64,000 nt of DNA from Acidobacteriota bacterium. GTDB lineage: Bacteria; Acidobacteriota; JAAYUB01. The DNA is taken from NCBI GenBank assembly GCA_017996395.1, contig JAGOHA010000003.1, positions 20,427-84,426 of the forward strand, read 5' to 3'. Under the pieces are notes generated by a model. It had not been told where the DNA came from. It saw nothing but the letters and a program-made list of their open reading frames with translations, and made no database searches. How positions within the stretch are numbered: the first letter of the stretch is position 1; each line of letters begins with the position of its first letter. Both the position numbers and the translations under genes were made by a program. This document shows positions 34,538-61,337 of the stretch, one piece after another.

Positions 34538-35329
34538 ATGATCTGGAAATCATTCGAAGGCGTCATGGAACCGGATTCCGCCGAAGCGCGGCTGTTGCAG
34601 TGCATCGACGCAAACTGTCTGCCGGTCCATGTCGCCATCATCATGGACGGCAACGGCCGCTGGGCCAACGCCCGCAACCTGCCCCGCATCGAAGGCCACA
34701 AGGCCGGCACGGACTCCGTCAAGCAGGTTATCGAGACCGCCGCCCGACTGGGCATCCGCTATCTTACTCTCTACGCTTTTTCCGTGGAGAACTGGAAGCG
34801 CCCCAAGACGGAAGTGCAGCAGCTCATGCGCCTGCTCAAGCATTACCTGAGAACCGAGTTGGGCACGCTCCTGAAACACGATATCCGCCTGCGGGCCATC
34901 GGACGGTTGGACGAGATGGAAGGCCCGGTCCGGCATCTGCTCCGTGAGACGGCCGCCCGGACGGCGAACAATCGCGGGCTGCAGCTCAGCCTGGCCCTGA
35001 ACTACGGCGGTCGAACCGAATTGGTGGACGCGGTCCGTGCCATCGCCCGGCAGGTCCAGGCCGGCACAGTGTCTCCCGAGGCCATCGACGTCGAGCACAT
35101 CGCCCGAAGCCTATACACCGATGGACTTCCGGATCCGGACCTGCTGATCCGGACCAGCGGCGAATACCGGCTGAGCAACTTCCTCCTCTGGCAAATCGCC
35201 TACACCGAGTTTTACATCACCCCCACCCTCTGGCCGGATTTCCGCCAGCGCCATTTCCTGGAGGCGGTGCTGGACTTCCAAAAGCGCGAGCGCCGGTTCG
35301 GCGGGCTTGCCGGCGAAACATCGTCCTAG
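34538..35329 (+). CDS. uppS: Isoprenyl transferase / undecaprenyl-diphosphate synthase UppS
   Basis: HVAIIMDGNGRWA...YLTLYAFSVENWKRP. Confidence 0.85.
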   Translation: MIWKSFEGVMEPDSAEARLLQCIDANCLPVHVAIIMDGNGRWANARNLPRIEGHKAGTDSVKQVIETAARLGIRYLTLYAFSVENWKRPKTEVQQLMRLLKHYLRTELGTLLKHDIRLRAIGRLDEMEGPVRHLLRETAARTANNRGLQLSLALNYGGRTELVDAVRAIARQVQAGTVSPEAIDVEHIARSLYTDGLPDPDLLIRTSGEYRLSNFLLWQIAYTEFYITPTLWPDFRQRHFLEAVLDFQKRERRFGGLAGETSS

Positions 35330-35333
35330 TTTC

Positions 35334-36150
35334 ATGATAACGCGCATCCTCTCCGCACTCGTCCTGATTCCCCTGGTCATCGCCGTCGTGTTCTTTGCGC
35401 CGCCCATCGTCTTCAGCGCGGCCGTCACGCTCCTCTGCCTCGTCGCCTTCGGCGAATTCCTGCTATTGCGGGATGGTCGGATGGATCGATCGCCTGGCTT
35501 CTGGCCCACGATGGCCGCCGCCAGTCTCTGCGGATTCGCGGTGGTTCATCCGATGTTCACAGATCATCGCGTGGCCGGTATCGTGGCCTTTTTCATGATT
35601 GCAGGCGTCCTCACCGTCTGGTTCAGCAAACGGAACGAAGAGATCGTCAGCCGGCTGGTTTGGCCGACCGCGGGATTCCTGTACCTGTTCGTGCTTTTCT
35701 CCTTCGTCGTCGACATTCGGTTCGACGTTGATCCCGCCTGCGGCGCCGGCTTGCTCATGGCGTTCCTGCTGATTCAATGGGTGGGCGACACCTTCGCCTA
35801 TTTCACCGGAACCTGGCTGGGCCGCCACCCGCTGGCGCCGCGGATCAGCCCGAAAAAGACCGTCGAAGGCACCATCGGCGGGGTGCTCGGTAGCGCGGGG
35901 GTTGGTTTGGCTGCCTGGTGGTGGCTGCCGCCGTCCCAGCCGCTCTGGCCGCTGCTGCTGCTGGGTGGCGCCGCCGGAGCGTTGGGTCAGGTGGGTGATC
36001 TGCTCGAATCCCAGTTCAAACGCGCGGCGGGAGTCAAGGATTCCTCGCACATTATTCCGGGGCACGGCGGCGTGCTGGACCGGCTGGATTCGTTGATTTT
36101 CACGGCACCGCCCTTTTACTACGCTTTGCAATGGTGCGTCACATCCGGTT

Positions 36151-36167
<17 letters not shown>
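35334..36167 (+). CDS. cdsA: Phosphatidate cytidylyltransferase CdsA
   Basis: C-terminal KRAAGVKDSSHIIPGHGGVLDRLDSL signature. Confidence 0.8.
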
Positions 36168-37344
<1,177 letters not shown>

Positions 37345-37355
37345 GTTGGATATTC

Positions 37356-38675
37356 ATGGATTACTTGATCAACGCCGTCTCCTTCGTCCTGATCCTGGGG
37401 CTCATGATCTTCTTGCACGAGTTGGGTCACTTTGTCGTGGCCCGGCTGTTGGGCATCCGGGTCGAAGTGTTCTCACTCGGTTTCGGCAAGCGGCTCTGTG
37501 GATTCAGCCGCGGCGGCGTGGATTACCGCATCAGCATGATTCCCCTGGGCGGATACGTGAAGATGGCCGGTGAGTATTTCGGCGAGGAATTGTCGGGCGA
37601 CCCGAACGAATTCCTCGCCCGGCCGCGCTACCAGCGGATCATGGTCATGCTGGCCGGTCCCGCGATGAACATCATCCTGGCGGTCGCTCTGGTGGCCGTC
37701 AATTACCAGGTGGGCATTGAGATGCCGACCTTCTATCACGACGATGCGGTGGCGGGTTATATCGTGGACGGTTCACCCGCCCAGTCGGCCGGACTGGTCG
37801 TGGGTGATCGGATCATCTCCCTGGGCGAACACCCGGTAAAAGATTGGGCCGATTTCCAGTTGCTGGCCATCAGTTTCTCCAAGCAGACCGTTCCGCTGCG
37901 TTACCAGCGTGACGGACAGACTCGGAGCACCTCGATCGTCCTGGCGGAAACGCTTCAGGATCCGTCGGAAATCACGGGCATAATGCCCATGATACCCACC
38001 CGGATCGCCACGGTGGCCGATGGATTTCCCGCCCACCGAATCGGCCTGCGGCCGGGTGACGAGATTCTCGAGGCCACCGACGGACAGTACACCGCCAGAG
38101 GGTACATGGACATTTCCCGCCTCATCCAGCGAAGCCTGAACCGCGAGGTGTCTCTGTCGGTGAAGCGCGGTCAGGACCTGCTCACGCTGGCCGGCCAGCC
38201 GGCGTTGTCCAAGGACGAGCCCCGTCGCGGTGTGTTGGGCTTCACCATCGCCATCGACCGCCTGGAGGAGCGCTACGGCCTGATCGAGTCGCTCCGCCGA
38301 TCGCTGCAGGACAACTACAATTTCGTGGTGATGACCTACCGTGTTTTGGGCAAGGTGGTCAGCGGGCGGCTCTCCATGCGCCAGTTGTCCGGCCCCCTGG
38401 GCATCGCCGAAGCCTCCGGCGAGGCGGTGAAGACCCTGAAGCTCACGGTTGTGTTCAGTTTCATCGCGCTGATCAGCGTCAACCTGGCGGTGGTCAACCT
38501 CCTGCCCATCCCGCTCCTGGACGGCGGCATGATTTTCATCCTGCTGATCGAGATGATCCTGCGCCGCGACCTGCCTCTCCGGCTGAAGGAACGAGCTGTC
38601 CAGATCGGATTCCTCCTGCTGGCTGCGCTGATGGGCGTGGTCATCATCCTGGATATCCTGAAAGCGGTGGAATGA
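37356..38675 (+). CDS. rseP: RIP zinc metalloprotease RseP (site-2 protease)
   Basis: HELGHFVVAR zinc motif, PDZ domain, C-terminal LDGG. Confidence 0.85.
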   Translation: MDYLINAVSFVLILGLMIFLHELGHFVVARLLGIRVEVFSLGFGKRLCGFSRGGVDYRISMIPLGGYVKMAGEYFGEELSGDPNEFLARPRYQRIMVMLAGPAMNIILAVALVAVNYQVGIEMPTFYHDDAVAGYIVDGSPAQSAGLVVGDRIISLGEHPVKDWADFQLLAISFSKQTVPLRYQRDGQTRSTSIVLAETLQDPSEITGIMPMIPTRIATVADGFPAHRIGLRPGDEILEATDGQYTARGYMDISRLIQRSLNREVSLSVKRGQDLLTLAGQPALSKDEPRRGVLGFTIAIDRLEERYGLIESLRRSLQDNYNFVVMTYRVLGKVVSGRLSMRQLSGPLGIAEASGEAVKTLKLTVVFSFIALISVNLAVVNLLPIPLLDGGMIFILLIEMILRRDLPLRLKERAVQIGFLLLAALMGVVIILDILKAVE

Positions 38676-38684
38676 GGCGTCACC

Positions 38685-39761
38685 GTGCGTATCCCGCGGC
38701 GACCTTCACGTCCCGTTCGGATCGGCACCGTCGGCGTCGGCGGCGACGCTCCGGTTTCGGTGCAGTCGATGACCAACACCGACACGCGGGATGTCGCCGC
38801 GACGGTGGCCCAGATTCATCGTCTGGAGGCGCGCGGGTGTGACCTGGCCCGCTGCGCGGTGGTCGACGCGCAGGCGGCGGCAGCGCTCGGTGAGATCATC
38901 CGCCAAATCCATATACCCCTGGTGGCGGATATCCACTTCGACCACACCCTGGCCCTGGCGGCGCTCGCCGCCGGCGTCCATAAAATCCGCATTAATCCGG
39001 GGAACATCGGCAGCCGCGAGAAAGCCCGTCGGGTGGTCGAGGAGGCCAAGGCCCGACAGGTGCCCATCCGGATCGGCGTCAATGCCGGTTCCCTGGAACG
39101 GGACATCCTGAAACAGCACGGCCATCCCACGGCGGCAGCGCTGGTGGAAAGCGCCATGCGACACGTGACCTTGCTCGAAGAGTTGGATTTTCACGACATC
39201 GTGATTTCTCTCAAGGCGTCCGATGTCCCGACCACCGTTGCGGCCTACCGGGATATCGCCCGGCGCGTTCCCTACCCCCTTCACCTGGGAGTGACCGAGG
39301 CGGGCACCCAGGCGGCGGGAACGGTGGTTTCAGCCATTGGCATCGGCGCACTGCTGCTGGACGGGATCGGCGACACGCTGCGGGTGTCGCTCACCGCTCC
39401 CCCCGAGAAGGAAATCGATGCCGGCTTTGAGATCCTGAAGGCGCTGGGCATCCGGCAGCGCGGTCCCCGGTTCATCTCGTGCCCCTCGTGCGGCCGAACC
39501 TCCGTTGACCTGATCGCCATCACCGAAGCGGTGGAACGGGAGCTGGCCGATGTGCAAGCGCCCGTCCAGATCGCCGTCATGGGCTGTGAGGTCAACGGGC
39601 CCGGCGAGGCGGCCGAAGCCGACATCGGGCTCGCCTGCGGCCGGGCAGCATCGCTGGTCCTGGAAAAGGGCCGCGTGGTGAAGAAGATTCCCAACGACAA
39701 CCTGGTGACGGCGTTTGTGGCCGAGGTCCGGCGCTTCCTCGCCGAACGCCGGCCGGAATAA
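38685..39761 (+). CDS. ispG: 4-hydroxy-3-methylbut-2-enyl diphosphate synthase IspG
   Basis: VRIGTVGVGGDAPVSVQSMTNTDTRD...CPSCGRT. Confidence 0.9.
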   Translation: MRIPRRPSRPVRIGTVGVGGDAPVSVQSMTNTDTRDVAATVAQIHRLEARGCDLARCAVVDAQAAAALGEIIRQIHIPLVADIHFDHTLALAALAAGVHKIRINPGNIGSREKARRVVEEAKARQVPIRIGVNAGSLERDILKQHGHPTAAALVESAMRHVTLLEELDFHDIVISLKASDVPTTVAAYRDIARRVPYPLHLGVTEAGTQAAGTVVSAIGIGALLLDGIGDTLRVSLTAPPEKEIDAGFEILKALGIRQRGPRFISCPSCGRTSVDLIAITEAVERELADVQAPVQIAVMGCEVNGPGEAAEADIGLACGRAASLVLEKGRVVKKIPNDNLVTAFVAEVRRFLAERRPE

Positions 39762-48210: not shown

Positions 48211-49209
48211 ATGCCCCATATCCCTATGAAATACGCGCCGCAGCTGATCTGGCACGGGACGCGGAACTTTTTTTCGGGCCGCCCGGTGGTCATCTCCTTT
48301 GAGACCACCCTCTCCTGCAACGCCAACTGCCGGCATTGCGACATCGAGGGCCACCGCCCTGACGAGGAACGCATGAAACCGGAGGGCTTCCGGAAATTCA
48401 TCGACCAGTTCCACCCGCCGGTGGTCCAGTTGTCCGGCGGCGAGCCGCTCCTCCGGGACGACCTGCTCGATGTGGTTCGGGCCGTCAAGATCAATCCCTT
48501 CTTTCCCTACACTATCCTGGTTTCCAACGGCTCGCTCATGACGCTGGAGCGCTATCGGGCGTTCCGCGAAGCGGGGGTGAACCAGTTCTCCGTTTCGCTG
48601 GATTTTCCCGATTCCCGCCATGATGACTTCCGCCTGATTCCCGGCTTGTACAACATCTTGAACGAGGTGATCCCGCAACTGGCCGCTGAAGGCCACGGCG
48701 ATGTGGTGCTCAACACCGCCATCACCTCGGCGAATGTCGGCGAGCTTGAACCCATCATCCGGACGGCCGACCGCTGGGGTGTTTGCCTGAGCTTCAGCAT
48801 CTACACGCCGCTCCGCACCCAGAATCCCGAGTACGTCGTGAGCAAAGCCGAAGACCTCGACGCCGTGGAGCAGCTGTTTGCGCGTTGCAAGCGGCGCCAG
48901 GGCGTCTATCGCCGGGTGGTGAACTCCCATTACAACCTGGATGGCATCATGCGATTCATGCGCGAGGGCAACATCCCCAACTGCAGCGCCGGCATCCGGT
49001 TCATGGTGGTCCGACCCGAGGGCAAGCTGAACCCCTGTTCACTCCAGCGGATCAATTTCGATACCCAGGATCAATTGGCCCGGGAATTTTCCGCCCACAA
49101 CACCTGCGGCGGCTGCTATGTGTCGATCCGATCATACGTCGAGATCTCGTTCGCTCAACTGTTGTGGGAAAACATCTCGATGCGGGTTTTTAACAGGAAT
49201 ACTATGTGA
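48211..49209 (+). CDS. Radical SAM enzyme with a C-terminal SPASM/twitch-like Cys cluster
   Basis: CNANCRHC (CxxxCxxC), the GGEPLL motif, C-terminal Cys residues (CSAGI...C...CGGCY). Confidence 0.65.
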   Translation: MPHIPMKYAPQLIWHGTRNFFSGRPVVISFETTLSCNANCRHCDIEGHRPDEERMKPEGFRKFIDQFHPPVVQLSGGEPLLRDDLLDVVRAVKINPFFPYTILVSNGSLMTLERYRAFREAGVNQFSVSLDFPDSRHDDFRLIPGLYNILNEVIPQLAAEGHGDVVLNTAITSANVGELEPIIRTADRWGVCLSFSIYTPLRTQNPEYVVSKAEDLDAVEQLFARCKRRQGVYRRVVNSHYNLDGIMRFMREGNIPNCSAGIRFMVVRPEGKLNPCSLQRINFDTQDQLAREFSAHNTCGGCYVSIRSYVEISFAQLLWENISMRVFNRNTM

Positions 49210-51606: not shown

Positions 51607-52965
51607 TCAGGCGTCGGGTTTGTCGCCGGAGGGAGCGCCCACGCCCCCCTTCCGAAGCAGGATGAACAGCCAGTACCCCAAACCGATCACCAACGCCAGA
51701 ATCACAGCGATGAGCACCGTCCGTTCCACCTGTTCCCGGCGGGAGGCGCCCGCCTGGGGGTCGTAGTCAGGATTGCCGGAGACCGCTCCCATGGTAACCT
51801 GGGTACGGGCCTGATCGGCCCAGGCATCGCTGCCGCCAAAACGATCAATGTCGTAATTGGGGGCGCGGACCGAACGGGCGCCCACCATCAGCCGGTACGG
51901 TTGCCGATCGTTGTCAGCCACGAAGAAAATCTCCCGGGTCGGGCTTTCAAATGACAGGGAACGGATTTCCAGTGGCGGGCTGTCGCCATTTTCTATGGCG
52001 ATCCGGTACTGCGCGATACCGGTACCCGGCAGATCCAGATGCAACCGTCGCTCCGGCCGACCGCCCAGCGGGAATGCGCAGATGGTGCCGCTGGCGAAGG
52101 GTTGCCAGCTCCCATCACGGCCGTTCGGGCTGCTTTCAACGGCCACCGTGCGGTAGAAAACCGGCGTGGTCACGTCGAACTGAATCCGACCGGCGGGAAG
52201 GCGCACGGGAATATCGATCACCGTCTGCCGGCTGGCATTCTGAACGGCCGGCACGGGCCGCAGCGGCCAGCGGTCGATGCGGGGGCCTCCGGGTTCCTCC
52301 TGCACCGATCGTCCATGGACGGCGTCGATTCTAAGCTGCTTCGCCCAGCTTCGACTGAAGATGATCTCCAGCCCCGTGGCGGTCACCTGTACGGTGTCAC
52401 GGTTCTCCGGCGCCGCTTCAGAATCCGTGATCCGCAGAACCAGCGCTCGCGCATCGGTGGCGGGAAAATCCACCCGAGTTCGCCGCAGGTCTACGTGAGA
52501 TGAAAAGTCATAAATTGTGTCCTGGCCGATAACGGGGCCGGCTGGATCGTTCGCGATCACCGTGACCTGTTTCCGGAAGTCTCGTTCCGGGATCGTGAAA
52601 TCGATCCCGCTCACGGCGCCTATCGCCTCAGGCACCGTGACGGTCAGCTGAACACTCCCCCTGCTATTTTCGTAGCTGGTGATTGTGAGGGGGGCTTCGG
52701 TTATCTTGGGCTGCAGACGGCTGAAACGGACGACGAATGGAATTTCGCGCCCGTCGGCGTCATACAGACGCATGTCCGCCAGATTGGATTCGCTGCGGGT
52801 CAACAGCTCCAGCGGGAGCGGGATTCGGCAGATGGCGTGCCGCCGGATTGCGCCCCGGATTTCCGCCTGGTATTTGAACTGCTCCACAGTGGGGCTGTCA
52901 ACCTGGGCCATCGTCGCTCCGGCGGCGATCGCCAGCCACACCCCCAACAGCTGATGCCGGCTCAT
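51607..52965 (-). CDS. DUF3999-like protein (signal peptide, C-terminal TM)
   Basis: Starts MSRHQLLGVWLAIAAGATMA. The 940-aa track ORF extends upstream in an artefactual frame. The start overlaps the DUF2339 stop by ATGA. Confidence 0.5.
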   Translation of the reverse strand: MSRHQLLGVWLAIAAGATMAQVDSPTVEQFKYQAEIRGAIRRHAICRIPLPLELLTRSESNLADMRLYDADGREIPFVVRFSRLQPKITEAPLTITSYENSRGSVQLTVTVPEAIGAVSGIDFTIPERDFRKQVTVIANDPAGPVIGQDTIYDFSSHVDLRRTRVDFPATDARALVLRITDSEAAPENRDTVQVTATGLEIIFSRSWAKQLRIDAVHGRSVQEEPGGPRIDRWPLRPVPAVQNASRQTVIDIPVRLPAGRIQFDVTTPVFYRTVAVESSPNGRDGSWQPFASGTICAFPLGGRPERRLHLDLPGTGIAQYRIAIENGDSPPLEIRSLSFESPTREIFFVADNDRQPYRLMVGARSVRAPNYDIDRFGGSDAWADQARTQVTMGAVSGNPDYDPQAGASRREQVERTVLIAVILALVIGLGYWLFILLRKGGVGAPSGDKPDA

Positions 52966-54935
52966 GGTTGTCCCTCCGGTTTGTCCGCATCCGGCCGAGG
53001 CCCCAGGAGCACTTCCTTGTAGCGGTGGTAAAGGTACGACACGCCGACAAGCAACAACCCCAGGACAAAGCATGAAATGATGCGGTAGGGGGTTTTCACT
53101 TCGGCCATGTCCCAGATGAGCACCTTGAGGATCGTCAGGCTGAACAACGCCAGCGACAGCCGACGCAGCGACGGCCGGTTCCACCGGAAACCCAGCAGCA
53201 TGAGCATCACCGAGTACAAGCTCCAGAGCACCGACACCGCAGCAAACCGCCCGGTGGGCAGATAGTCGTAGAAAAACGCGTTGACTTCCAGGTTCAGCAC
53301 GCCGAACAGCAGCACGCTCCAGCCGATTGCGGCCAGGACGGCCAGCGTGTTGCGCAGCGCCTGATGCTCCGGGCGTGGCAGGTAGTACTTGACCAGCCGG
53401 TAAAACAGGATCGTCAGCCCGATGACCACCGCGGCGGACAGCCAGCGGTCCACGGCGCAGCTCATGTAACCGGCCGGGAAACAGAGGCTGTCCAGATCCA
53501 GATCGAAATTGTCGAGATAATCCCAGAGCAGCAGCTTGCCGCCGGCCAGAGTCAGCACACCCGCGCCGGCGAGCTGCAAGGTGGGGCGTCCCAGCCGCAG
53601 TCCCATCCACAGAAGCGCAACCGCCTGGGCCGCCCAGAACACGGTGATCCAATGTTCCGAGAAAATGATGGGCACGGTGATGAACAGAAACAGCATCGCC
53701 TTGGCCAGCAGCACGACGAACGCGCCCACACTCCGCTGGCCCCGCCGCTCCAGAAAGGCGGCCAGTGCGAGGAAGATGAACGCGTACGTCACCGATACAA
53801 CGCTGGCCCAGATACCGTCCGAACGGTCGGCGATGAGCCCATAGCTCACGCTGAAGGCCAGCAAGGAGTTCGGCGTGATGATCAGGAAGCCCCACAGTCG
53901 ATCGATCCGGCCTCGGAAGCACTGGTAAGCGAAGGGCATCAGGGTGTAGATGAGGTAGAAGATGTTTAGGAAAATGATTGCGGGCCAGAACTTCGACGCA
54001 TTGTAGTGGGTGACACCCCAGGCGAAGTAGGTGATGTACGTGAAGATGAAGCCCAGGGCGTTCAGCAAGGCCCACTGCTTGCGGAAGGCGATGACCAGGA
54101 GGCCCAGGTTCAGGACCGTAAGGTAGGTCATCAGGGCGATCTGGTTGTCCTGGCCGGTGCTGAGCAAGAGTGGGGTCAGAAAACCGCCGATCATCGCCAG
54201 GGCCGCCAGCCACTTGTTGTCGTAGACCACTGCCAGGGCACAGCCCAGCGCCGTGATCAGGACCATCACGCCAAAGGCAAGGGCCTGTCCGAACAGCTGG
54301 TAGATCTGGAAACCGGCGAACGTCGCGAAATAGAGGACCGCCACGCCGCCGCCCGCCAGACAGAGCCCGAAAACCCGGTAGCCCCGACGGCGGAAGAGCT
54401 CTCCCGCTCCGAGCAACCCGATCCCCCACAGAAACGCCAGTGCGACCCGGCCGGCCGGACCGATCCAGGCCCGGTCAAAGGAGTATTTCAGAAAGTACCC
54501 CACCGCCAGCACGATGATGATCACTCCGATGGCCAGGATCCACTTCTGACCCAGGCGAACCTCCATCTCCGGCGCCCGGGCGACGGTGCGCGGCGCCTGT
54601 TGCGGGGGGACGGTTGGCGCCGGAGCCGGCTCTGTTTTCGGCTGCTGCTCCGCTGCGGCGGATCGGACTGCGGCGAGCGTCCCGGCTGCCTGAGATTCGG
54701 GCTGAGGTTCGACCGGCGTGGCCACCAGATGCTCGCTCAAAGCCGTGACGCGACCATCGAGCTGGTCCAGATTCTCCCACAACCCGCGGACCTGCTTTCG
54801 GACGACCTGCAGCTGTTGCCGCAGTTCCTGAAAAGCCCGAGCCCGCTCCAGTTCGTCATCCGAAAACCTGTGGCCGCACTGCATGCAGTGCCGGGCCAAT
54901 TCGGCGATGCTCGCATGACATTGGGGGCACTTCAC
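52962..54935 (-). CDS. DUF2339-like polytopic membrane protein with an N-terminal zinc ribbon
   Basis: MKCPQCHASIAELARHCMQCGHRF (CxxC...CxxC), coiled coil, Pro/Ala linker, then about 20 TM helices. Confidence 0.55.
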   Translation of the reverse strand: MKCPQCHASIAELARHCMQCGHRFSDDELERARAFQELRQQLQVVRKQVRGLWENLDQLDGRVTALSEHLVATPVEPQPESQAAGTLAAVRSAAAEQQPKTEPAPAPTVPPQQAPRTVARAPEMEVRLGQKWILAIGVIIIVLAVGYFLKYSFDRAWIGPAGRVALAFLWGIGLLGAGELFRRRGYRVFGLCLAGGGVAVLYFATFAGFQIYQLFGQALAFGVMVLITALGCALAVVYDNKWLAALAMIGGFLTPLLLSTGQDNQIALMTYLTVLNLGLLVIAFRKQWALLNALGFIFTYITYFAWGVTHYNASKFWPAIIFLNIFYLIYTLMPFAYQCFRGRIDRLWGFLIITPNSLLAFSVSYGLIADRSDGIWASVVSVTYAFIFLALAAFLERRGQRSVGAFVVLLAKAMLFLFITVPIIFSEHWITVFWAAQAVALLWMGLRLGRPTLQLAGAGVLTLAGGKLLLWDYLDNFDLDLDSLCFPAGYMSCAVDRWLSAAVVIGLTILFYRLVKYYLPRPEHQALRNTLAVLAAIGWSVLLFGVLNLEVNAFFYDYLPTGRFAAVSVLWSLYSVMLMLLGFRWNRPSLRRLSLALFSLTILKVLIWDMAEVKTPYRIISCFVLGLLLVGVSYLYHRYKEVLLGPRPDADKPEGQP

Positions 54936-55103: not shown

Positions 55104-55179
55104 TGGTGCCGAGGGACGGAATTGAACCGCCGACACAGGGATTTTCAGTCCCCTGCTCTACCGGCTGAGCTACCTCGGC
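55104..55179 (-). tRNA. tRNA-Phe (anticodon GAA), CCA encoded
   Basis: Reverse complement GCCGAGGTAGCTCAGCCGGTAGAGCAGGGGACTGAAAATCCCTGTGTCGGCGGTTCAATTCCGTCCCTCGGCACCA: 7-bp acceptor stem, anticodon loop CTGAAAA, T-loop GGTTCAATTCC. Confidence 0.9.
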
Positions 55180-55398
55180 CACCGCTTCGAAGCGATATCG
55201 CCAAACCCAAAGAACCGAGCGAAGGGCTGGATTATAAAGACGCCTCCGGGCCCTGTCAACTGCTTTTTATCCCGCCGTCATGTTCGGGCGCACATGCAGA
55301 TCACGGCAGGGACGGGATTTACCATCTTCGCCGTCGGCAAAACGGATTGCAATTCGACACCCCATCTGCTAGATTGAACTGCTTGACAGGAAGCGCAC

Positions 55399-56073
55399 AT
55401 GTACAAGGGCAACCGGATCACGGTGGTCATCCCGTGCCTCAATGAAGAGGAAGGGATTCCGCTCGTCCTGAAACAGATTCCCAACTTCGTGGACGAGGTC
55501 CTCGTCGTCGACAACGGTTCCACCGACCGGACCGCCGACATCGCCACCTCCTTTGGCGCCACGGTCATCCAGGAAAGCATCCGCGGGTATGGCCGGGCTT
55601 ACAAGACCGGTCTGGCCAACGCCCAAGGGGATATTATCATCACCCTGGACGGCGACCATTCCTACCCTGTGGACGCCATTTCGTATCTCATCGAGGCCCT
55701 GCTCCACTCCGGCGTCCGCTTCGTCTCGGCCTCACGGTTTCCGGTACAAAATCCCGAAGCCATGTCCTTCAAGCACAAATTCGGCAACATCGTGCTCAGC
55801 CTGTGCCTGTCGCTGCTCTACTTCCGCTGGGTGCGCGATTCGCAGTCGGGCATGTGGATCTTCTACCGGGAAATCCTGAAGCAGTTCCGGCTCCGCAGCG
55901 ACCTGATGGCGTTCTCGGAAGAGATCAAGATCGAGGCCATTCGCAACCGGGAAGTCGGATTTCGGGAGATCCCCATCAACTTCTCGAACCGGATGGGCGA
56001 AATCAAACTCCAACCGTGGCGAGACGGTTTCCGCAACCTGCTGTTCCTGTTCCAGAAGCGGTTCCGGCCGTGA
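55399..56073 (+). CDS. GT2-family glycosyltransferase (polyprenyl-phosphate sugar synthase-like)
   Basis: ITVVIPCLNEEEGI...VLVVDNGSTDRT...TLDGDHSY (GT-A DxD region). Confidence 0.75.
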   Translation: MYKGNRITVVIPCLNEEEGIPLVLKQIPNFVDEVLVVDNGSTDRTADIATSFGATVIQESIRGYGRAYKTGLANAQGDIIITLDGDHSYPVDAISYLIEALLHSGVRFVSASRFPVQNPEAMSFKHKFGNIVLSLCLSLLYFRWVRDSQSGMWIFYREILKQFRLRSDLMAFSEEIKIEAIRNREVGFREIPINFSNRMGEIKLQPWRDGFRNLLFLFQKRFRP

Positions 56074-57044
56074 ACACACCGCCGCCAGCATGCCCGATCT
56101 GCGGGGCCGCGGACTCCTGCCGCTGGCTGGAGAACTCCGATTTCCTGTTTCACACGTCGCCCGTCGTCCACACCCTGCACCGCTGTCTGTCCTGCCGATG
56201 CGCATTTCTGCACCCCATGCCGGAACCCCGGGCGCTCGCGGATGCCTATCCGCGCCCCTACTGGTGGATCGCCCAGGACCGGCCCCGGGGCCTGTCGCAC
56301 AAGCTGGAGACGGTCTACCGGGAGGCGGTGTTGCGCCATCACGTCCACGTGGCTCGACGGCATCTGGCGGGGTCCGCGCCGAAAGTCCTCGATGTGGGCT
56401 GCGGCAGCGGCACCTTTCTCCATGTGCTGCGCCGGGTGACCGGCGTCGCGGGCGAAGGGCTCGACGCCTCGCCCGATGCCGCCCAGGCGGCCCAGGCTGC
56501 TTACGGGCTCCGGGTGCACGTCGGCGACATCGACACCGCCGATCTGCCCGAGCAGGGCTACGACCTTATCACGCTGTTCCATGTGCTGGAGCACCTGCCG
56601 CAACCCGGTGACGCGCTGAGCCGCGTCGGCCGGTGGCTGGCGCCCGGCGGCACCCTGCTGCTGCAGGTCCCCAACCTGGACAGCTGGCAATGCCGCTGGT
56701 TCGGCCGGCGCTGGAGCGGCCTGGACATCCCCCGCCACGTGGTGGGCTTCCAGCCGCACGCCATGGCCGACCTGCTTCGCCGGATCGGTTTCGAGCCCGG
56801 GCCGCCCCGGTTTTTCTCGCTGCGCGACAATGCGGCGGCGATCGCCACGTCGCTGGCCCCCGCCCTGGACCCCGTAGCTATGGCCGTCCGCGGCGACAAC
56901 CGCTTGGCGATTGCACGAAAAGTGTTATACTTCGCCCTGTTGGCGGCCGCGCAGCCACTGGCCCTGCTGGAGGCGATGGCCGCACGCGGCGGCACATTCT
57001 TCCTGCCGGCCCGCCGGATCATGACCCCACGGAGTCACGCATGA
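56070..57044 (+). CDS. Class I SAM-dependent methyltransferase with N-terminal Cys4 zinc-ribbon-like motifs
   Basis: GTG start overlapping the upstream stop. CPICG...C...CLSCRC, then VLDVGCGSGTFL (motif I) and ...LLLQVPN... Confidence 0.65.
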   Translation: MNTPPPACPICGAADSCRWLENSDFLFHTSPVVHTLHRCLSCRCAFLHPMPEPRALADAYPRPYWWIAQDRPRGLSHKLETVYREAVLRHHVHVARRHLAGSAPKVLDVGCGSGTFLHVLRRVTGVAGEGLDASPDAAQAAQAAYGLRVHVGDIDTADLPEQGYDLITLFHVLEHLPQPGDALSRVGRWLAPGGTLLLQVPNLDSWQCRWFGRRWSGLDIPRHVVGFQPHAMADLLRRIGFEPGPPRFFSLRDNAAAIATSLAPALDPVAMAVRGDNRLAIARKVLYFALLAAAQPLALLEAMAARGGTFFLPARRIMTPRSHA

Positions 57045-57568
57045 GCCAGATGCATCACATCAATATCGTTTTCACGGGTGGAACCATCGAAAAAATCTAC
57101 GACGAAGTTCAGGGCGGCATCGACAACATCGAAAGCTGGATCGACCGTGAATTCCCGCCGCTGCGTCTCCCCTATGTCCGGCTGCATTCGCTGCGGCTCA
57201 TGAACATCGACAGCCTCCAGATGACCGACGAGCACCGCCAAGTAATCGCCCAGACCATCCAGCGCCTCCAGGAAGACGGTCGTCCCATCGTCCTCACCCA
57301 TGGCACGGACACCATGGTGGACACCGGACGCTACATCAAGTCGCATCTGTCGCAGATCAAGGTCCCCATCGTCCTGACCGGCGCCATGCTGCCGCTGGTG
57401 GTGCAAAACAGCGACGGCATCCAGAATCTCACCGAAGCGCTCTTCGCCACGAAATTCCTCCCCCCCGGCGTCCACATCGTCTTCCACAATGAGGTCTACG
57501 ACGTGGACCGGGTCCGCAAAAATCGCCAGGCCAAAACCTTCGAACGGATTGAAAACGGCGGGAAGTGA
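57041..57568 (+). CDS. Standalone L-asparaginase N-terminal-domain-like protein (about 175 aa)
   Basis: IVFTGGTIEK (asparaginase GGTI nucleophile motif) and LTHGTDTMVDTG (HGTDTM motif). No asparaginase C-domain follows. Confidence 0.55.
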   Translation: MSQMHHINIVFTGGTIEKIYDEVQGGIDNIESWIDREFPPLRLPYVRLHSLRLMNIDSLQMTDEHRQVIAQTIQRLQEDGRPIVLTHGTDTMVDTGRYIKSHLSQIKVPIVLTGAMLPLVVQNSDGIQNLTEALFATKFLPPGVHIVFHNEVYDVDRVRKNRQAKTFERIENGGK

Positions 57569-57943
57569 TCAGTCCTTGGCCGGCGGCTCCTCGCCTCCTA
57601 AAGGCGATCGGTATTCCAGTCGGGCTTCCAGCAAGGCCAGCCTCTGGGCCAGCACCTGGTTCTGACGGGTCAGCTTGGACATCGCCAGTCCCTGGTGCAG
57701 CATGATCGCGAACAGGAACAGGATCGCCAGATAGAACACGAGCGATGGCGGATAGTAGATGCCCACCAACTGAGCCAGCCGGTTCAGCCAGCCTTCCGAA
57801 AGGATGAGCACCTGGATGCAGACGATGGCCGCCAGCCACAGGAGGGAGTACTTCTCCTTCAGTTTTTCCCGCCGGAGGAAGTGGATGATGGCCAGCAGGA
57901 GCAGGCCGTTGATCACTGTGGTGAAGATCTGGACGAACGTCAT
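57569..57943 (-). CDS. DUF2304-like small membrane protein (partner of GT2 polyprenyl-phosphate sugar synthases)
   Basis: 3 TM and a C-terminal coiled coil; sits immediately downstream of a GT2 gene, as in the known GT2/DUF2304 pairs. Confidence 0.45.
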   Translation of the reverse strand: MTFVQIFTTVINGLLLLAIIHFLRREKLKEKYSLLWLAAIVCIQVLILSEGWLNRLAQLVGIYYPPSLVFYLAILFLFAIMLHQGLAMSKLTRQNQVLAQRLALLEARLEYRSPLGGEEPPAKD

Positions 57944-57957
57944 GCGGCACCTCCGGC

Positions 57958-58668
57958 TCAGTAGCGGATCATATCGATCAAGATGGCCAGCGTTACCTTG
58001 ATCATGTAATACCCGGATCGCAGAAACGTGATCGACGACATGCCGGCGGATCGCTCGCGCATGGTCACCGGCACCTCGTCGACGCACATCTGCCATTTAT
58101 ACAGCATGATGATGACTTCGGGCTCCGGATAGTCGTCGGGGTAAAAGCGGCAGAGGCGCTGCATGGCCCGGCGGCTGTACAGGTGGAACCCTGACGTGGC
58201 GTCGGTCACCCGGAATCCCGTCAGCGCCCGGATCAGGCGGCAGAGGAAACCGATGGCCAGCCGCCGCAGCCAGGAGGATTGGAAACCGGCGCGGGAGAGA
58301 AAGCGGGAACCGACCAATAGGTCCACCGGCTGCCGGCGGATATGATCGAAGAAGCGGTGGATGTCGCTCGGATCATGCTGGCCATCACCGTCCAGGCGGA
58401 GCACCCAGTGGAATCCTTCGGCCAGCGCGTAAGCGATTCCGGTCTGGATGGCGGCGCCGATTCCCATGTTGAACGGCAATGTGACGACGACCGCCTCGTG
58501 GGCACGCGCCACCGCGGCGGTCCGGTCGGCGGATCCGTCGTCGATCACCAGCAGAGTCGCGGCGGGAAACTCGCGGTGGAGTTCGTCCAGGACAGCGCCG
58601 AGATTGCCCTCCTCGTTGTATGCGGGGATCAGAAAGAGCACTTCCCGGAGATCGAACGGCCGGTTCAT
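57958..58668 (-). CDS. GT2-family glycosyltransferase (DPM-synthase-like)
   Basis: VLFLIPAYNEEGNL...LLVIDDGSADRT...LDGDGQHDP. Start chosen at MNRPF (58668) rather than the track start at 58887. Confidence 0.7.
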   Translation of the reverse strand: MNRPFDLREVLFLIPAYNEEGNLGAVLDELHREFPAATLLVIDDGSADRTAAVARAHEAVVVTLPFNMGIGAAIQTGIAYALAEGFHWVLRLDGDGQHDPSDIHRFFDHIRRQPVDLLVGSRFLSRAGFQSSWLRRLAIGFLCRLIRALTGFRVTDATSGFHLYSRRAMQRLCRFYPDDYPEPEVIIMLYKWQMCVDEVPVTMRERSAGMSSITFLRSGYYMIKVTLAILIDMIRY

Positions 58669-59669
58669 CGCCGCATCCTCCCGCGGCTCCCCTGCCCGCC
58701 CCGGAGGCTTGGCGTCAGGAAGCCGAGCACCCACCCTGACATTCGCGCAAACGCCCGGAGCGTGAACACGGTCAGGCCGAGAGGCCACAAACCGAATTCC
58801 CGCGCCTCGCGGGCGACGCCCGTCGCGGCCCACCCTTCGAGCAGCAGGAGGGCGCCGGTGGCGCCACCCGCCGCCCAGCCGGCCCACGGCACGCCGGCCG
58901 CGGCCGACAGGGCGGCTCCGGGGATCACCAGCGCCAGCGCGACGTCCAGCATGTCTCGCGGCCGGGTGTAGTCATCGCCGGACACGAAGGCTGGATGCTT
59001 GCGGTACAGCCGGCTCCGCCAGAAGCCGTGGATGTATTGCGTGCGGAGATACCCCCCGATCCGTTCCGGATGGTGATGAGCCACCCGGCAGCCGGGACGG
59101 AAGGCGATCCGGTAACCGGCGTGACGGATGCGGTACGACAGGTCGTTGTCCTCGGCGCTGGCGGTTGGGAATGACTCGTCGAAGCCGCCTACCTGTTCCA
59201 GCACGGTGCGCCGCACCGCCAGGTTGTAAGTGCCGCCGGCCCTCACGAACGCGGGCATCCGCCGGTGGCGGAAGGCAATCTCGGCCTGGATGAGCCGGGC
59301 CAACGGTCGCTCACCGTTGGCGGCCGCGTAACTGCCGGCCACCGCCCCCACGTCAGCGGCTTCCAGGCCGTCGACCATGCCGGCAACCCATCCGGGCGGC
59401 GGGATGCAGTCGGCATCGGTGAAACAGATCACTTCACCACCAGCCCGGCGCCAGCCGGTGTTCCGGGCGGCGGCGGGGCCGCGGTTCGGCTGCCGGATCA
59501 GCGTGACGCCTCGCCGGCTGATGCGCTCCGCCGTATCGTCGGTGGACCCGTCGTCCACCAGCACGAGCTCCAGTTCGTGCCCGCCCGATTCCAGCCGCTG
59601 GAGTGCATCGAGCGTTCGCTCGATATAGCGGGCGCTGTTGAAACATGGCACCACGACCGAAACGTTCAT
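58665..59669 (-). CDS. GT2-family glycosyltransferase with a C-terminal membrane anchor
   Basis: VSVVVPCFNSARYI...LVDDGSTDDT...FTDADC. Start chosen at MNVSVV, about 59669. The longer 634-aa track ORF overlaps the upstream gene in another frame. Confidence 0.65.
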   Translation of the reverse strand: MNVSVVVPCFNSARYIERTLDALQRLESGGHELELVLVDDGSTDDTAERISRRGVTLIRQPNRGPAAARNTGWRRAGGEVICFTDADCIPPPGWVAGMVDGLEAADVGAVAGSYAAANGERPLARLIQAEIAFRHRRMPAFVRAGGTYNLAVRRTVLEQVGGFDESFPTASAEDNDLSYRIRHAGYRIAFRPGCRVAHHHPERIGGYLRTQYIHGFWRSRLYRKHPAFVSGDDYTRPRDMLDVALALVIPGAALSAAAGVPWAGWAAGGATGALLLLEGWAATGVAREAREFGLWPLGLTVFTLRAFARMSGWVLGFLTPSLRGGQGSRGRMRR

Positions 59670-61105
59670 GGCCGGCGCCTCCCCCGCAGGCGCTCCAGGT
59701 TGTAGCGCAGGTAGCTCCACGCACCGTAGGCCTTGCGCCGGACGTCCCCCCAGGAACGCACCGCCGTGAGCATCCGGAGCAGCTGGCGTGGCCGCAGGTA
59801 GAATTCGCGCAGGCCGCGGTCGATCAACTCGTCGATCTCCGACTTCGACAACTGCGGATAGCTCAGCAGAGTGACCTGTTCGCCGTCGGCGCTGATCCAC
59901 TCCGTCCAATCCTGCGGCACCAGGAAGCCGTTCTCGACAGCCCAACGGTACATCTCGGTGCCCGGATAGACGCAGATTCCCGAAATCTGGATCGTGTCCA
60001 GCGGCAGCCGTTTGGCGAACGCGATGGTCTGGAGGGCAGACTCCCGGGTTTCGCCAGGCGCACCCACCATGAAACAGCCGTGGACGATGAAGCCCAGCTC
60101 GTGCGCCCGGCGCGCGAACGCCTCGCTCTGTTCCAGCGTCACGCCCTTGCGAACGGCGTCCAAAGCGGCCTGGGTGCCGAATTCGAATCCCGTCATGAGC
60201 ATCCGGCAACCGGCGCGCCGCATCAGCGGAAGCAGTTCCAGGTCCATGTCTACCCGGGCATTGCAGCTCCAGGCGATCCGGATGCCGCGACGCAGGATCT
60301 CCTCGCACACGCCGGCGACGTGGGGGCGAGAGGCCACGAAGGTGTCGGTTTCGAACATGATCTCGCGCAGTCCGGGAAACAGCGACAGATCGTGCGCGAT
60401 CTCGTCCACCACCAGTTCCGGCCGGCGCATGCGCAGACGGTGCCCCACCATGAGCTGGGGATCCTGGCAGAAGGTACATCGCGCGAAGCAGCCCCGCCCT
60501 GACAGGAGCGTGAGAAAGGGATACAACTTGCCGGCGTCGCGGTACCACTCCGGTCGCACGTGACGCCACGCCGGAAACGGCAATTCGTCCACGTCCAGCG
60601 GCGGCGGCAGCGGGTTGTGCACCACCCCGCCGTCGCCGGTGAAGGAAATTCCGGCTATGCTCATATCATCCGGCCGGTCGGCCAGTTCGCGCAGGATGAA
60701 ATCGTATTCGCCCCGCACGATTCGGTCCACCGCCCCGGCCGCGATCCGGAAGCTGTCGTCCGGCTCGGCCGAGACGTGGTTGCCCACCAGCACTGTGAAC
60801 GCCCCGGAGCGTTCCTTGATCGACCGGGCCAGGCTGATGTCGCTGTATATGGATGGCGTCGTGGTGTGCAGCACGGCCATATCCGGCCGGAATGCGTCCG
60901 CCGCTTCCCGGATGTCCGCCGGTTTCAGATTGAGGGCAGCTCCGTCTATGAATCTCAGATCGTGTCCCGCCGCCTCCAGGACGGCCGTGGCGACGAGCAG
61001 GTAATCGGGATGGCGCTGGACGCGTCCGCGGGAACGCGCCGCCCAGCGGGCCGAGCGGACGAAATCGTCCATGAACGGAGGATTCAGGATCAGGATTCTG
61101 GCCAT
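59666..61105 (-). CDS. Cobalamin (B12)-binding-domain radical SAM enzyme (class B)
   Basis: N-terminal B12-binding-like Rossmann region (ARILILNPPF...), radical SAM motif GCFARCTFC (CxxxCxxC). Confidence 0.65.
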   Translation of the reverse strand: MARILILNPPFMDDFVRSARWAARSRGRVQRHPDYLLVATAVLEAAGHDLRFIDGAALNLKPADIREAADAFRPDMAVLHTTTPSIYSDISLARSIKERSGAFTVLVGNHVSAEPDDSFRIAAGAVDRIVRGEYDFILRELADRPDDMSIAGISFTGDGGVVHNPLPPPLDVDELPFPAWRHVRPEWYRDAGKLYPFLTLLSGRGCFARCTFCQDPQLMVGHRLRMRRPELVVDEIAHDLSLFPGLREIMFETDTFVASRPHVAGVCEEILRRGIRIAWSCNARVDMDLELLPLMRRAGCRMLMTGFEFGTQAALDAVRKGVTLEQSEAFARRAHELGFIVHGCFMVGAPGETRESALQTIAFAKRLPLDTIQISGICVYPGTEMYRWAVENGFLVPQDWTEWISADGEQVTLLSYPQLSKSEIDELIDRGLREFYLRPRQLLRMLTAVRSWGDVRRKAYGAWSYLRYNLERLRGRRRP

Positions 61106-61176
61106 GCGGTGCCATTATAAACCGGCGCGCCCGCGTCACCCAAGGCCATTCGTCTGCGGCGGCCTGCATTCCGGAC

Positions 61177-61205
61177 TTGACAGGACGACGTCATTTGTAT
61201 ATAAA
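61177..61205 (+). promoter_or_regulatory. Consensus sigma70-type promoter TTGACA-N17-TATAAA upstream of rpmH
   Basis: Read directly; predicts a leader of about 125 nt before the rpmH ATG. Confidence 0.55.
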
Positions 61206-61337
61206 TGAGCCCGTTGCGCTGCCGGCCGGCACTCGGAAACCGCCATTCGCGCGGCTACGCATGCGGACAACCTGCTGATCTGCAGAGAGTAACGATCAAC
61301 TACCGAACACTAACGCGAGCAGAGGAGCCATACATCG

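Follow-up and report, generated by a model that had tools for sequence, protein, structure and literature searches.

What does a cobalamin-type radical S-adenosylmethionine (SAM) enzyme modify when its gene shares an operon with glycosyltransferases? The gene in question, here called rSAM, lies in a 64,000-nucleotide stretch of an Acidobacteriota genome (assembly GCA_017996395.1, contig JAGOHA010000003.1, positions 20,427 to 84,426 of the forward strand), which we refer to as the window; coordinates below are positions in it. A preliminary description had noted an N-terminal B12-type domain followed by the motif CFARCTFC, considered the position of the gene at the head of an operon with two family-2 glycosyltransferases (GT2) and a DUF2304 protein atypical, and proposed that the enzyme may tailor a lipid or sugar moiety. 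The best explanation of our results is a module for tailoring a surface glycan or glycolipid, with rSAM as its conserved core. On balance, and reasoning from sequence and gene context, we think that it probably tailors a lipid-carrier-linked or nucleotide-activated sugar for a surface glycoconjugate. It is not a hopanoid enzyme. The gene and its parts are the following.

59666-61105, minus strand: class B (B12-domain) radical SAM enzyme, 479 amino acids (aa), soluble; first gene of the operon (open reading frame and Pfam)
60692-60997, minus strand: B12-binding Rossmann-like domain, aa 37-138 (PF02310; alternating strands and helices in the structural model)
60017-60502, minus strand: radical SAM core, aa 202-363 (PF04055)
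60467-60490, minus strand: CxxxCxxC motif, C206-FAR-C210-TF-C213, ligands of the [4Fe-4S] cluster (sequence and family conservation)

An open reading frame (ORF) of 479 aa with an ATG start matches these coordinates exactly. Since public assemblies contain an identical protein in 54 blocks, and 1799 of the proteins among the candidates scored match it at E<=1e-10, this is a real gene and no chance ORF. The annotated start codon is supported because homologues align to the protein from residue 1-3. Two plus-strand ORFs, 59645-60502 and 60560-61120, overlap rSAM; similar antisense ORFs lie inside every orthologue, and these are antisense artefacts of a high-GC gene. Pfam recognizes the B12-binding domain (35.7 bits, E 8.9e-9, cutoff 32.1) and the radical SAM core (70.7 bits, E 2.1e-19, cutoff 29.5), and no transmembrane (TM) segment is predicted in the protein. 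The three cysteines are invariant across 22 aligned family members, and the CxxxCxxC motif is equally invariant in HpnJ and in all paralogues examined.

We then built an AlphaFold2 model from the 22-sequence alignment (mean pLDDT 84.9, pTM 0.85). A Foldseek comparison with the PDB placed AprD4 first (TM-score 0.70-0.75), followed by MgmA/QCMT, TsrM, OxsB, CysS and TokK, and the model superposes over its full length on MgmA, TsrM, OxsB, CysS and TokK. These matches confirm the class B architecture, a B12-type Rossmann domain ahead of the CxxxCxxC radical SAM core, so that on both domains and class the preliminary description was right. rSAM is a putative cobalamin enzyme. By sequence, the matches to solved structures are remote only (AprD4, 61 bits and about 20% identity; MgmA/QCMT, 41 bits), and therefore no function can be transferred from them.

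The only strong match among curated NCBIfam models is HpnJ (TIGR03471), on which rSAM scores 347.4 bits against a cutoff of 577.6, with aa 3-472 aligned to positions 2-470 of the 472 in the profile. The runner-up, BchE (TIGR02026), reaches 112.7 bits against a cutoff of 481, which rules out membership in that family; the model for ladderane-type lipid radical SAM enzymes, TIGR04072, gives 93.5 bits and HpnR gives 75. Given the top-ranking, end-to-end match, the HpnJ label that one family member carries in an NCBI metagenome-assembled genome (MAG) record, and the fact that some Acidobacteriota make hopanoids (PMC5462960), we considered that rSAM could be a genuine HpnJ making bacteriohopanetetrol cyclitol ether. 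A positive control, the PGAP-annotated Mycetohabitans HpnJ from an hpnI-hpnJ-hpnK cluster, scores 843.9 bits on TIGR03471. Seven other proteins score 291-376 bits, all below the cutoff: four members of the rSAM family (321.6-351.9), two near-family proteins (P0123, 348.9; P0125, 290.8) and a relative from Lawsonia (375.8). The labeled family member, P0048 from a Deferrisomatales MAG, is among the four, and because its 321.6 bits fall under the cutoff, its label is an over-annotation. Furthermore, rSAM is 32-33% identical to annotated HpnJ proteins, about 50 representatives of 50%-identity clusters outscore HpnJ against it, and the two lie in separate clades (see below). A tblastn search of the 64-kb window returned no match to HpnI or HpnK, and gene calls covering about 48 kb of it (from about 16.5 kb to the 3′ end) contain no shc or hpn gene; this annotated part holds ordinary housekeeping genes (dxr, rseP, ispG, uppS, cdsA, Mla, Tol-Pal). 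In a recent survey, HpnJ domains above threshold were confined to genomes encoding both SHC and HpnH (bioRxiv 10.1101/2025.07.29.667474), while the rSAM family occurs in Omnitrophota, Brachyspira and DPANN archaea. HpnJ orthology is thus ruled out by the curated cutoff and its positive control, by identity, by clade and by gene context, and we consider a genuine HpnJ extremely improbable. Clear orthology to a characterized enzyme, for instance a hopanoid enzyme with hpn neighbors, had been named beforehand as the result that would overturn the proposal; we looked for it, and no characterized orthologue turned up. Family members are sometimes labeled HpnJ (the NCBI MAG record) and, in Joint Genome Institute (JGI) records, "anaerobic Mg-protoporphyrin IX monomethyl ester cyclase" or "YgiQ".

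Judged from its sequences, the rSAM family is a clade of its own inside a large HpnJ-like radical SAM group. The nearest relative genome is an Acidobacteriota MAG, at 91% identity. Bacterial relatives at 54-78% identity come from Acidobacteriota, Latescibacterota, Nitrospirota, Nitrospinota, Elusimicrobiota, Planctomycetota, Omnitrophota, Sumerlaeota, Bacteroidota and Deltaproteobacteria, and the same range includes the cultured spirochaete Brachyspira catarrhinii and DPANN archaea (Undinarchaeales, Nanoarchaeota). One more family protein, 62% identical to rSAM, comes from an Asgard-labeled MAG (locus L087). The family spans at least ten bacterial phyla, and mean column identity in the 22-member alignment is 70% across phyla, archaea included. 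When each 50%-identity cluster is reduced to one representative, practically the whole family is covered by a single entry (P0121, 669 bits); the next representatives score 532-460 bits at 51-45% identity, and a continuum at 30-40% identity follows. In all, 3945 such representatives match rSAM at E<=1e-30. In a neighbor-joining tree, the orthologues form one long-stemmed clade and HpnJ falls in another, with several unnamed clades nearer to rSAM. This tree was made from BLOSUM distances and is coarse, and we rely on it for gross separation only. Taxa are intermixed inside the family clade, a pattern suggestive of lateral transfer. The taxonomic labels of MAGs are not necessarily reliable; many of the Omnitrophota-type bins carry the label "Planctomycetales" and yet fall with Omnitrophota in the tree. 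The family is covered by none of the curated NCBIfam models, and we found no paper describing the family or the module in the open literature (subscription literature was not searchable). Also among the cluster representatives are five proteins of 1800-2300 aa (P0168, P0169, P0183, P0212 and P0253) with up to four tandem HpnJ-like radical SAM units.

The residues that are invariant in the family are overwhelmingly polar or charged. Those specific to it are R17, R20, R26, R28, R31 and H32, in the loop after the first Rossmann strand, and D190, K193 and E409; in HpnJ, the counterparts of R26, R31, H32, D190, K193 and E409 are E, W, Y, I, L and V. Two low-confidence loops of the model, aa 18-25 and 191-194, lie inside the residue regions 17-32 and 190-193, and of the residues named they contain only R20 and K193. 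A role for the family-specific residues in holding a substrate with a phosphate group, or in contacting the corrin ring from its lower face, is speculation. Other cysteines are conserved as well: C267 and C344 in 81 of the 81 members examined, C281 in 80 and C300 in 78. In genuine HpnJ, the positions of C267, C281, C300 and C344 hold A, C, L and T, so that only the second is a cysteine there, and the four positions are variable in other clades. A shared auxiliary Fe-S cluster is therefore unsupported.

The genes around rSAM, listed from its upstream side, are these.

61106-61337, no strand: intergenic region between rSAM and the divergent rpmH, 232 bp (sequence; rpmH from gene calls)
59666-61105, minus strand: rSAM (ORF list and gene calls on identical contigs)
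58665-59669, minus strand: GT2a, a GT2 of 334 aa with a hydrophobic C-terminal region (gene call, Pfam)
57958-58668, minus strand: GT2b, a GT2 of 236 aa without TM segments, of the GacI/PpgS polyprenyl-phosphate sugar synthase type (NCBIfam and PDB matches)
57569-57943, minus strand: DUF2304 membrane protein of 124 aa with three TM segments, GacJ/Rv3632 family (PF10066)
57041-57568, plus strand: stand-alone asparaginase N-terminal-domain protein, 175 aa, last gene of a convergent operon (PF00710)
56217-57044, plus strand: class I SAM-dependent methyltransferase, 275 aa (Methyltransf_23, gene call)
55399-56073, plus strand: GT2c, a GT2 of 224 aa of the AglJ/dolichyl-phosphate hexose transferase type, first gene of the convergent operon (Pfam, NCBIfam)

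The stop codon of rSAM overlaps the ATG of GT2a by 4 nucleotides (nt) (59666-59669), GT2a and GT2b overlap in the same manner (4 nt, 58665-58668), and 14 nt separate GT2b from DUF2304. The four genes form a translationally coupled operon headed by rSAM, as first described. An operon of GT2c, methyltransferase and asparaginase-domain genes converges on it; the latter two overlap by 4 nt, and the stop of the asparaginase-domain gene abuts that of DUF2304. On the other side, gene calls place a divergent rpmH-rnpA-yidD-yidC-mnmE run upstream of rSAM. A TATAAT at 61113-61118 ends 8 nt upstream of the rSAM ATG, and reading the intergenic sequence we saw no obvious Shine-Dalgarno motif before it; the mRNA may be leaderless or nearly so. 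No cobalamin riboswitch or other Rfam element lies near the operon, the single Rfam match in the window being a tRNA-Phe.

GT2a matches the Pfam models Glycos_transf_2 (90 bits) and Glyco_transf_21 (40.8 bits). Its best NCBIfam models, MftF (152 bits) and EpsD (108 bits), are both below cutoff. The PDB entry 6yv7, labeled a family-2 glycosyltransferase and which we take to be the crenarchaeal membrane mannosyltransferase PcManGT, aligns to aa 3-282, and a TM segment is predicted at aa 239-263. GT2a is the commonest partner of the rSAM family, and GT2a-like genes adjoin orthologues in many phyla. In the convergent operon, GT2c matches the Pfam GT2 model (87 bits) and, below cutoff, the NCBIfam models for AglJ (114 bits) and dolichyl-phosphate (Dol-P)-hexose transferase (110 bits); the methyltransferase matches Methyltransf_23 (93.7 bits). 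The asparaginase-domain protein, which begins MSQMHHINIVFTGGTIEK, matches PF00710 (108 bits) and is possibly an amidohydrolase. Its gene stays with the module only in three Acidobacteriota loci (L005-L007). That it acts as a deacetylase, in the role that HpnK has in the hopanoid pathway, is pure speculation.

GT2b is recognized as a GT2 by Pfam too. Its best NCBIfam model is PpgS (NF058614), at 107.8 bits against a cutoff of 370, which rules out a PpgS equivalog with N-acetylgalactosamine (GalNAc) as its sugar; models of AglJ, Dol-P-hexose transferase and ArnC type follow. PDB sequences gave six matches to GT2b, five of them polyprenyl-phosphate glycosyltransferases (ArnC, 9hwj; GtrB, sll0501; DPMS, 5mlz), and these are the sole informative ones. 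Neither GT2b nor GT2c has a predicted TM segment. The DUF2304 protein matches PF10066 (79.2 bits) and has three hydrophobic segments. A short TM-free GT2 followed by a small three-TM DUF2304 protein is the GacI/GacJ-type arrangement, and GT2b and DUF2304 have it. DUF2304 is the family of GacJ, a protein of 113 aa with three TM segments that forms a complex with the GT2 GacI, lowering its Km for undecaprenyl phosphate and raising its Vmax in the synthesis of N-acetylglucosamine (GlcNAc)-P-undecaprenol; the GT-C enzyme GacL moves the GacI-made sugar outside the membrane, and Rv3632, the Mycobacterium tuberculosis homologue of GacJ, stimulates PpgS (bioRxiv 10.1101/180810). By sequence, GT2b and DUF2304 match such a polyprenyl-phosphate N-acetylhexosamine (HexNAc) synthase pair and would work like GacI/GacJ or PpgS/Rv3632. 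We found nothing relevant in the literature that links GacI/GacJ-type pairs with radical SAM enzymes.

To see whether this setting recurs, we called ORFs in 80 genome loci, with ±10 kb of context available per related locus, and searched them with the window proteins and iterated profiles. The loci split in two along the tree, 45 of Omnitrophota type (within L028 and L035-L084) and 35 others. Outside the Omnitrophota type, a GT2 gene lies within 8 kb in 25 of the 35 loci and in 20 of the 22 that have at least 3 kb of flank on both sides; glycosyltransferase context is therefore the norm there. The GT2 gene directly adjoins rSAM on the same strand in 14 of the 35, often with overlapping start and stop codons, and DUF2304 lies within 8 kb in 10. 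Far from being atypical, then, the position of rSAM beside GT2 and DUF2304 genes is a usual one outside the Omnitrophota type: an Undinarchaeales locus has the same set, and HpnJ itself is encoded beside HpnI. Several loci illustrate the range.

Acidobacteriota, L005-L007: all seven window genes kept
Undinarchaeales, L030: GT2b, DUF2304, GT2a, rSAM, with a convergent methyltransferase and UDP-GlcNAc 2-epimerase nearby
Brachyspira, L055: rSAM, an overlapping GT2, then class I methyltransferases
Unclassified MAG, L086: GT2b, DUF2304, rSAM, rSAM, family-4 glycosyltransferase (GT4), rSAM, GT2a
Elusimicrobiota MAG, L085, 1-15532: methyltransferase, PMT_2, GT2b, DUF2304, rSAM, three more HpnJ/BchE-like rSAMs, GT2a, rSAM, PMT, rSAM, PMT_2
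Lawsonia intracellularis plasmid 1, L089, NC_008012.1 8160-25521: an rSAM 36% identical to the query

The Elusimicrobiota locus is an expanded module, in which GT2b-DUF2304, GT2a, a methyltransferase and three GT-C enzymes of PMT_2 type are interspersed among six HpnJ/BchE-like rSAM genes; its paralogous rSAMs fall under every NCBIfam cutoff and could not be named. The Lawsonia locus, a related cluster on a pathogen plasmid that includes sugar-activation genes, holds in addition to rSAM the genes for DUF2142, GT2, galE, GT2, two DUF2304 proteins and a SIS-domain protein. Five of its genes are annotated as class I methyltransferases, and a second rSAM, a further GT2 and HAD/GHMP genes complete it. 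Class I methyltransferases thus accompany rSAM in Brachyspira, Undinarchaeales and Elusimicrobiota, and the related rSAM in Lawsonia. Further recurrent neighbors are RmlA, a 4,6-dehydratase-like short-chain dehydrogenase/reductase (SDR), an RmlD-like reductase, a DegT aminotransferase, GT4 and PMT_2. The wider genomic setting of the family is surface-glycan biosynthesis.

These conserved neighbors are why we propose tailoring of a sugar or lipid-linked sugar. The nearest named family, HpnJ (347 bits, against 113 for BchE), matches over its full length and is itself encoded beside the GT2 HpnI, and the best structural match, AprD4, acts on a sugar. The mostly polar or charged character of the invariant residues also counts in favor of this reading. 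Of the two possibilities raised in the preliminary description, the sugar moiety is the best inference, and tailoring of a hopanoid or tetraether lipid chain is disfavored. In the pathway we propose, GT2b, aided by the three-TM DUF2304 subunit, would produce a polyprenyl-monophosphate sugar in the same way as GacI/GacJ and PpgS/Rv3632, the sugar probably being a HexNAc, and the membrane-anchored GT2a would add or transfer a further sugar at the membrane. The rSAM enzyme would reduce its [4Fe-4S] cluster and cleave SAM to a 5′-deoxyadenosyl radical, which would take a hydrogen atom from an unactivated carbon, either in the lipid-linked sugar or in the nucleotide precursor of that sugar. The radical left on the substrate might then be quenched by methyl transfer from methylcobalamin, giving C-methylation as with GenK or MoeK5; alternatively, it might be rearranged in a pyranose-to-cyclitol ring contraction, as proposed for HpnJ and the calditol synthase Cds. 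The class I methyltransferase could then add O- or N-methyl groups and, in relatives carrying them, GT-C (PMT_2) enzymes would move the finished sugar to an extracytoplasmic acceptor.

If the substrate is a sugar, C-methylation is a reasonable but tentative candidate for the outcome; ring contraction is possible but rather unlikely, and the same can be said of dehydration or some other outcome. Methylation is suggested because most class B radical SAM enzymes are methylases (MoeK5, for one, methylates a lipid-linked sugar) and clusters hold up to six paralogous rSAMs. It is also suggested by a published similarity network, where MoeK5 and Fom3 co-localize with HpnJ at a stringent threshold (PMC9204698). 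Ring contraction comes into consideration because HpnJ is the only named close relative and is, with Cds, a proposed ring-contractor of lipid-linked hexoses; HpnJ acts on lipid-linked glucosamine, and the ring contractions by HpnJ and Cds are proposals resting on genetics (PMC13459092, PMC9204698). A bolder version joins these points into a widespread unrecognized pathway, in which the partner GT2 enzymes would make a lipid-anchored hexose or hexosamine and contraction of its ring would yield a carbocyclic head group or glycan unit of cyclitol type. It would operate in many mostly uncultured bacterial lineages, in DPANN and possibly in Asgard archaea, as a non-hopanoid, non-Sulfolobus counterpart of bacteriohopanetetrol (BHT) cyclitol ether and calditol. 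As a joint claim, we regard this as unlikely, though worth stating.

A number of observations weigh against sugar tailoring. None of the 45 Omnitrophota-type loci has a glycosyltransferase within 8 kb; in 26, the gene immediately downstream encodes a 2x[4Fe-4S] ferredoxin of about 93 aa, and the neighbors are otherwise housekeeping genes such as aconitase, leuD and aroC. On the Asgard-labeled contig the rSAM gene stands alone. In the window, there is no GT-C transferase or flippase within 10 kb of the operon, and GT2b is so far under the PpgS equivalog cutoff that its sugar is not assignable. AprD4, which shares the fold including the Rossmann-like domain, binds no cobalamin (PMC12931638). Finally, members of the family are biochemically uncharacterized, and the reaction of HpnJ, the closest precedent, itself rests on genetics only (PMC13459092). 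The Omnitrophota-type and Asgard-labeled loci would fit a housekeeping radical SAM reaction, such as cofactor, RNA or protein modification, with the glycosyltransferase neighbors being a lineage-specific coincidence or a secondary recruitment. So would the mean column identity of 70% over many phyla and the two prokaryotic domains, a degree of conservation not usual among tailoring enzymes, and the adjacency of the gene in the window to rpmH-rnpA-yidD-yidC-mnmE. However, this adjacency is divergent and not seen in other phyla, a ferredoxin neighbor fits any radical SAM enzyme, and the GT2 linkage in nearly all well-flanked loci outside the Omnitrophota type extends over many phyla and DPANN. 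Given this balance, a housekeeping role seems improbable to us, if not negligibly so.

The other reading to be weighed is that rSAM tailors a lipid hydrocarbon chain, by methylation, cyclization or cross-linking of membrane-spanning, branched or polyprenyl lipids in the manner of HpnP/HpnR and the ladderane or glycerol dialkyl glycerol tetraether (GDGT) enzymes, and that the glycosyltransferases build that lipid's head group. Modification of hopanoids and GDGT lipids by class B radical SAM enzymes does occur (PMC13459092), the host is an Acidobacteriota bacterium, rSAM has a weak match to the ladderane-type model, and uppS, cdsA, dxr and ispG are found elsewhere in the window. These isoprenoid genes, however, are more than 20 kb away and ordinary housekeeping, and lipid synthases are not among the conserved partners, which are glycosyltransferases and enzymes of sugar-nucleotide metabolism. 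The family is present in DPANN archaea, which are largely without lipid biosynthesis. The low HpnR score and the mostly polar or charged invariant residues also speak against a hydrocarbon substrate. We consider lipid-chain tailoring quite improbable and favor sugar tailoring over it, whether the chain is of the hopanoid or the tetraether kind.

Other features of the window stand apart from the module. The tRNA-Phe (GAA) gene, 55104-55179 on the minus strand, lies between the glycan module and a DUF2339 gene and is preceded by a perfect sigma-70 consensus (TTGACA-17-TATAAT, 12 of 12 positions; 55231-55259, minus strand). Two genes overlapping by 4 nt occupy 51607-54935 on the minus strand and encode DUF2339, a 657-aa protein with many TM segments and a zinc-ribbon-like CxxC pair near its N terminus, and DUF3999, of 452 aa; they adjoin the module only in the closest relatives (L001-L005) and are therefore probably unrelated to it. 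A second, small radical SAM protein of 332 aa with PF04055 only is encoded at 48211-49209 on the plus strand, flanked by genes for a 428-aa protein without a Pfam match and an OsmC-family protein. The housekeeping isoprenoid/phospholipid run of uppS, cdsA, dxr, rseP and ispG, at 34538-39761 on the plus strand, would provide the polyprenyl-phosphate carrier but has no linkage to the module.

There are more than 220,000 cobalamin-type radical SAM enzymes, and reactions are known for a few dozen (PMC12931638). Uncharacterized B12 radical SAM enzymes are common in glycan clusters; conservation, breadth and possible use as a model for HpnJ/Cds chemistry set this family somewhat apart. It stands out by its 70% conservation, its own clade beside HpnJ, and its repeated link to a GacI/GacJ-type synthase, a membrane GT2 and methyltransferases. 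If our proposal is true, the surfaces of many uncultured lineages bear a sugar altered by radical chemistry, either C-methylated or carbocyclic, and the family would offer a tractable route to HpnJ/Cds-type chemistry. Should the reaction be ring contraction, rSAM would be a soluble, highly conserved model enzyme; we found no report of a reconstitution of HpnJ or Cds chemistry. HpnJ and BchE mislabels, for their part, could inflate genomic estimates of hopanoid side-chain or bacteriochlorophyll capacity.

How does the module compare with known systems? HpnJ has the same length and domain order as rSAM, aligns end to end with it, and is encoded beside a GT2 that makes its lipid-linked sugar substrate (hpnI-hpnJ-hpnK). 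It differs in sequence, rSAM being 230 bits below the HpnJ cutoff and in a separate clade with many unnamed clades closer to it, in its context of hpnI and hpnK, of which the window has no match, and of shc and hpnH, absent from the roughly 48 kb annotated, and in range, since the rSAM family includes lineages not known as hopanoid makers. The archaeal analogue of the HpnJ logic is Cds (Saci_1489) of Sulfolobus, a radical SAM enzyme proposed to contract a lipid-linked hexose to a five-membered carbocycle, with homologues reported mainly from acidophiles (PMC13459092). It is this HpnJ-type logic that the module resembles, whereas the rSAM family comes mostly from MAGs of many phyla. AprD4, a sugar 1,2-diol dehydratase, is the best match of rSAM among solved structures by both sequence and fold, but at low identity and without cobalamin binding. 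GenK and MoeK5 are sugar-acting class B enzymes of C-methylation; like AprD4, they are actinomycete antibiotic-pathway enzymes from outside polyprenyl-phosphate glycan modules.

On the glycosyltransferase side, GacI/GacJ of Streptococcus pyogenes and PpgS/Rv3632 of M. tuberculosis share with GT2b and its neighbor the TM-free GT2, the three-TM DUF2304 protein and, in gacI-gacJ, the gene order. GT2b, in contrast, is no PpgS orthologue, no radical SAM partner is described for those pairs (bioRxiv 10.1101/180810), and the query operon lacks a GacL-like GT-C enzyme within 10 kb. In ArnC/ArnT-type systems, a GT2 makes an undecaprenyl-phosphate sugar that a GT-C enzyme transfers outside the membrane; GT2b matches the ArnC, GtrB and DPMS structures, and related loci carry PMT_2/ArnT-like GT-C enzymes. 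The Arn and Gtr systems, unlike this module, have no radical SAM step, and no GT-C enzyme or flippase is near the query operon. In kind, therefore, the system is known: an HpnJ-like class B radical SAM enzyme paired with a GT2, as in hpnI-hpnJ. What is new is that a separate family does so in a polyprenyl-phosphate glycan module, outside hopanoid producers.

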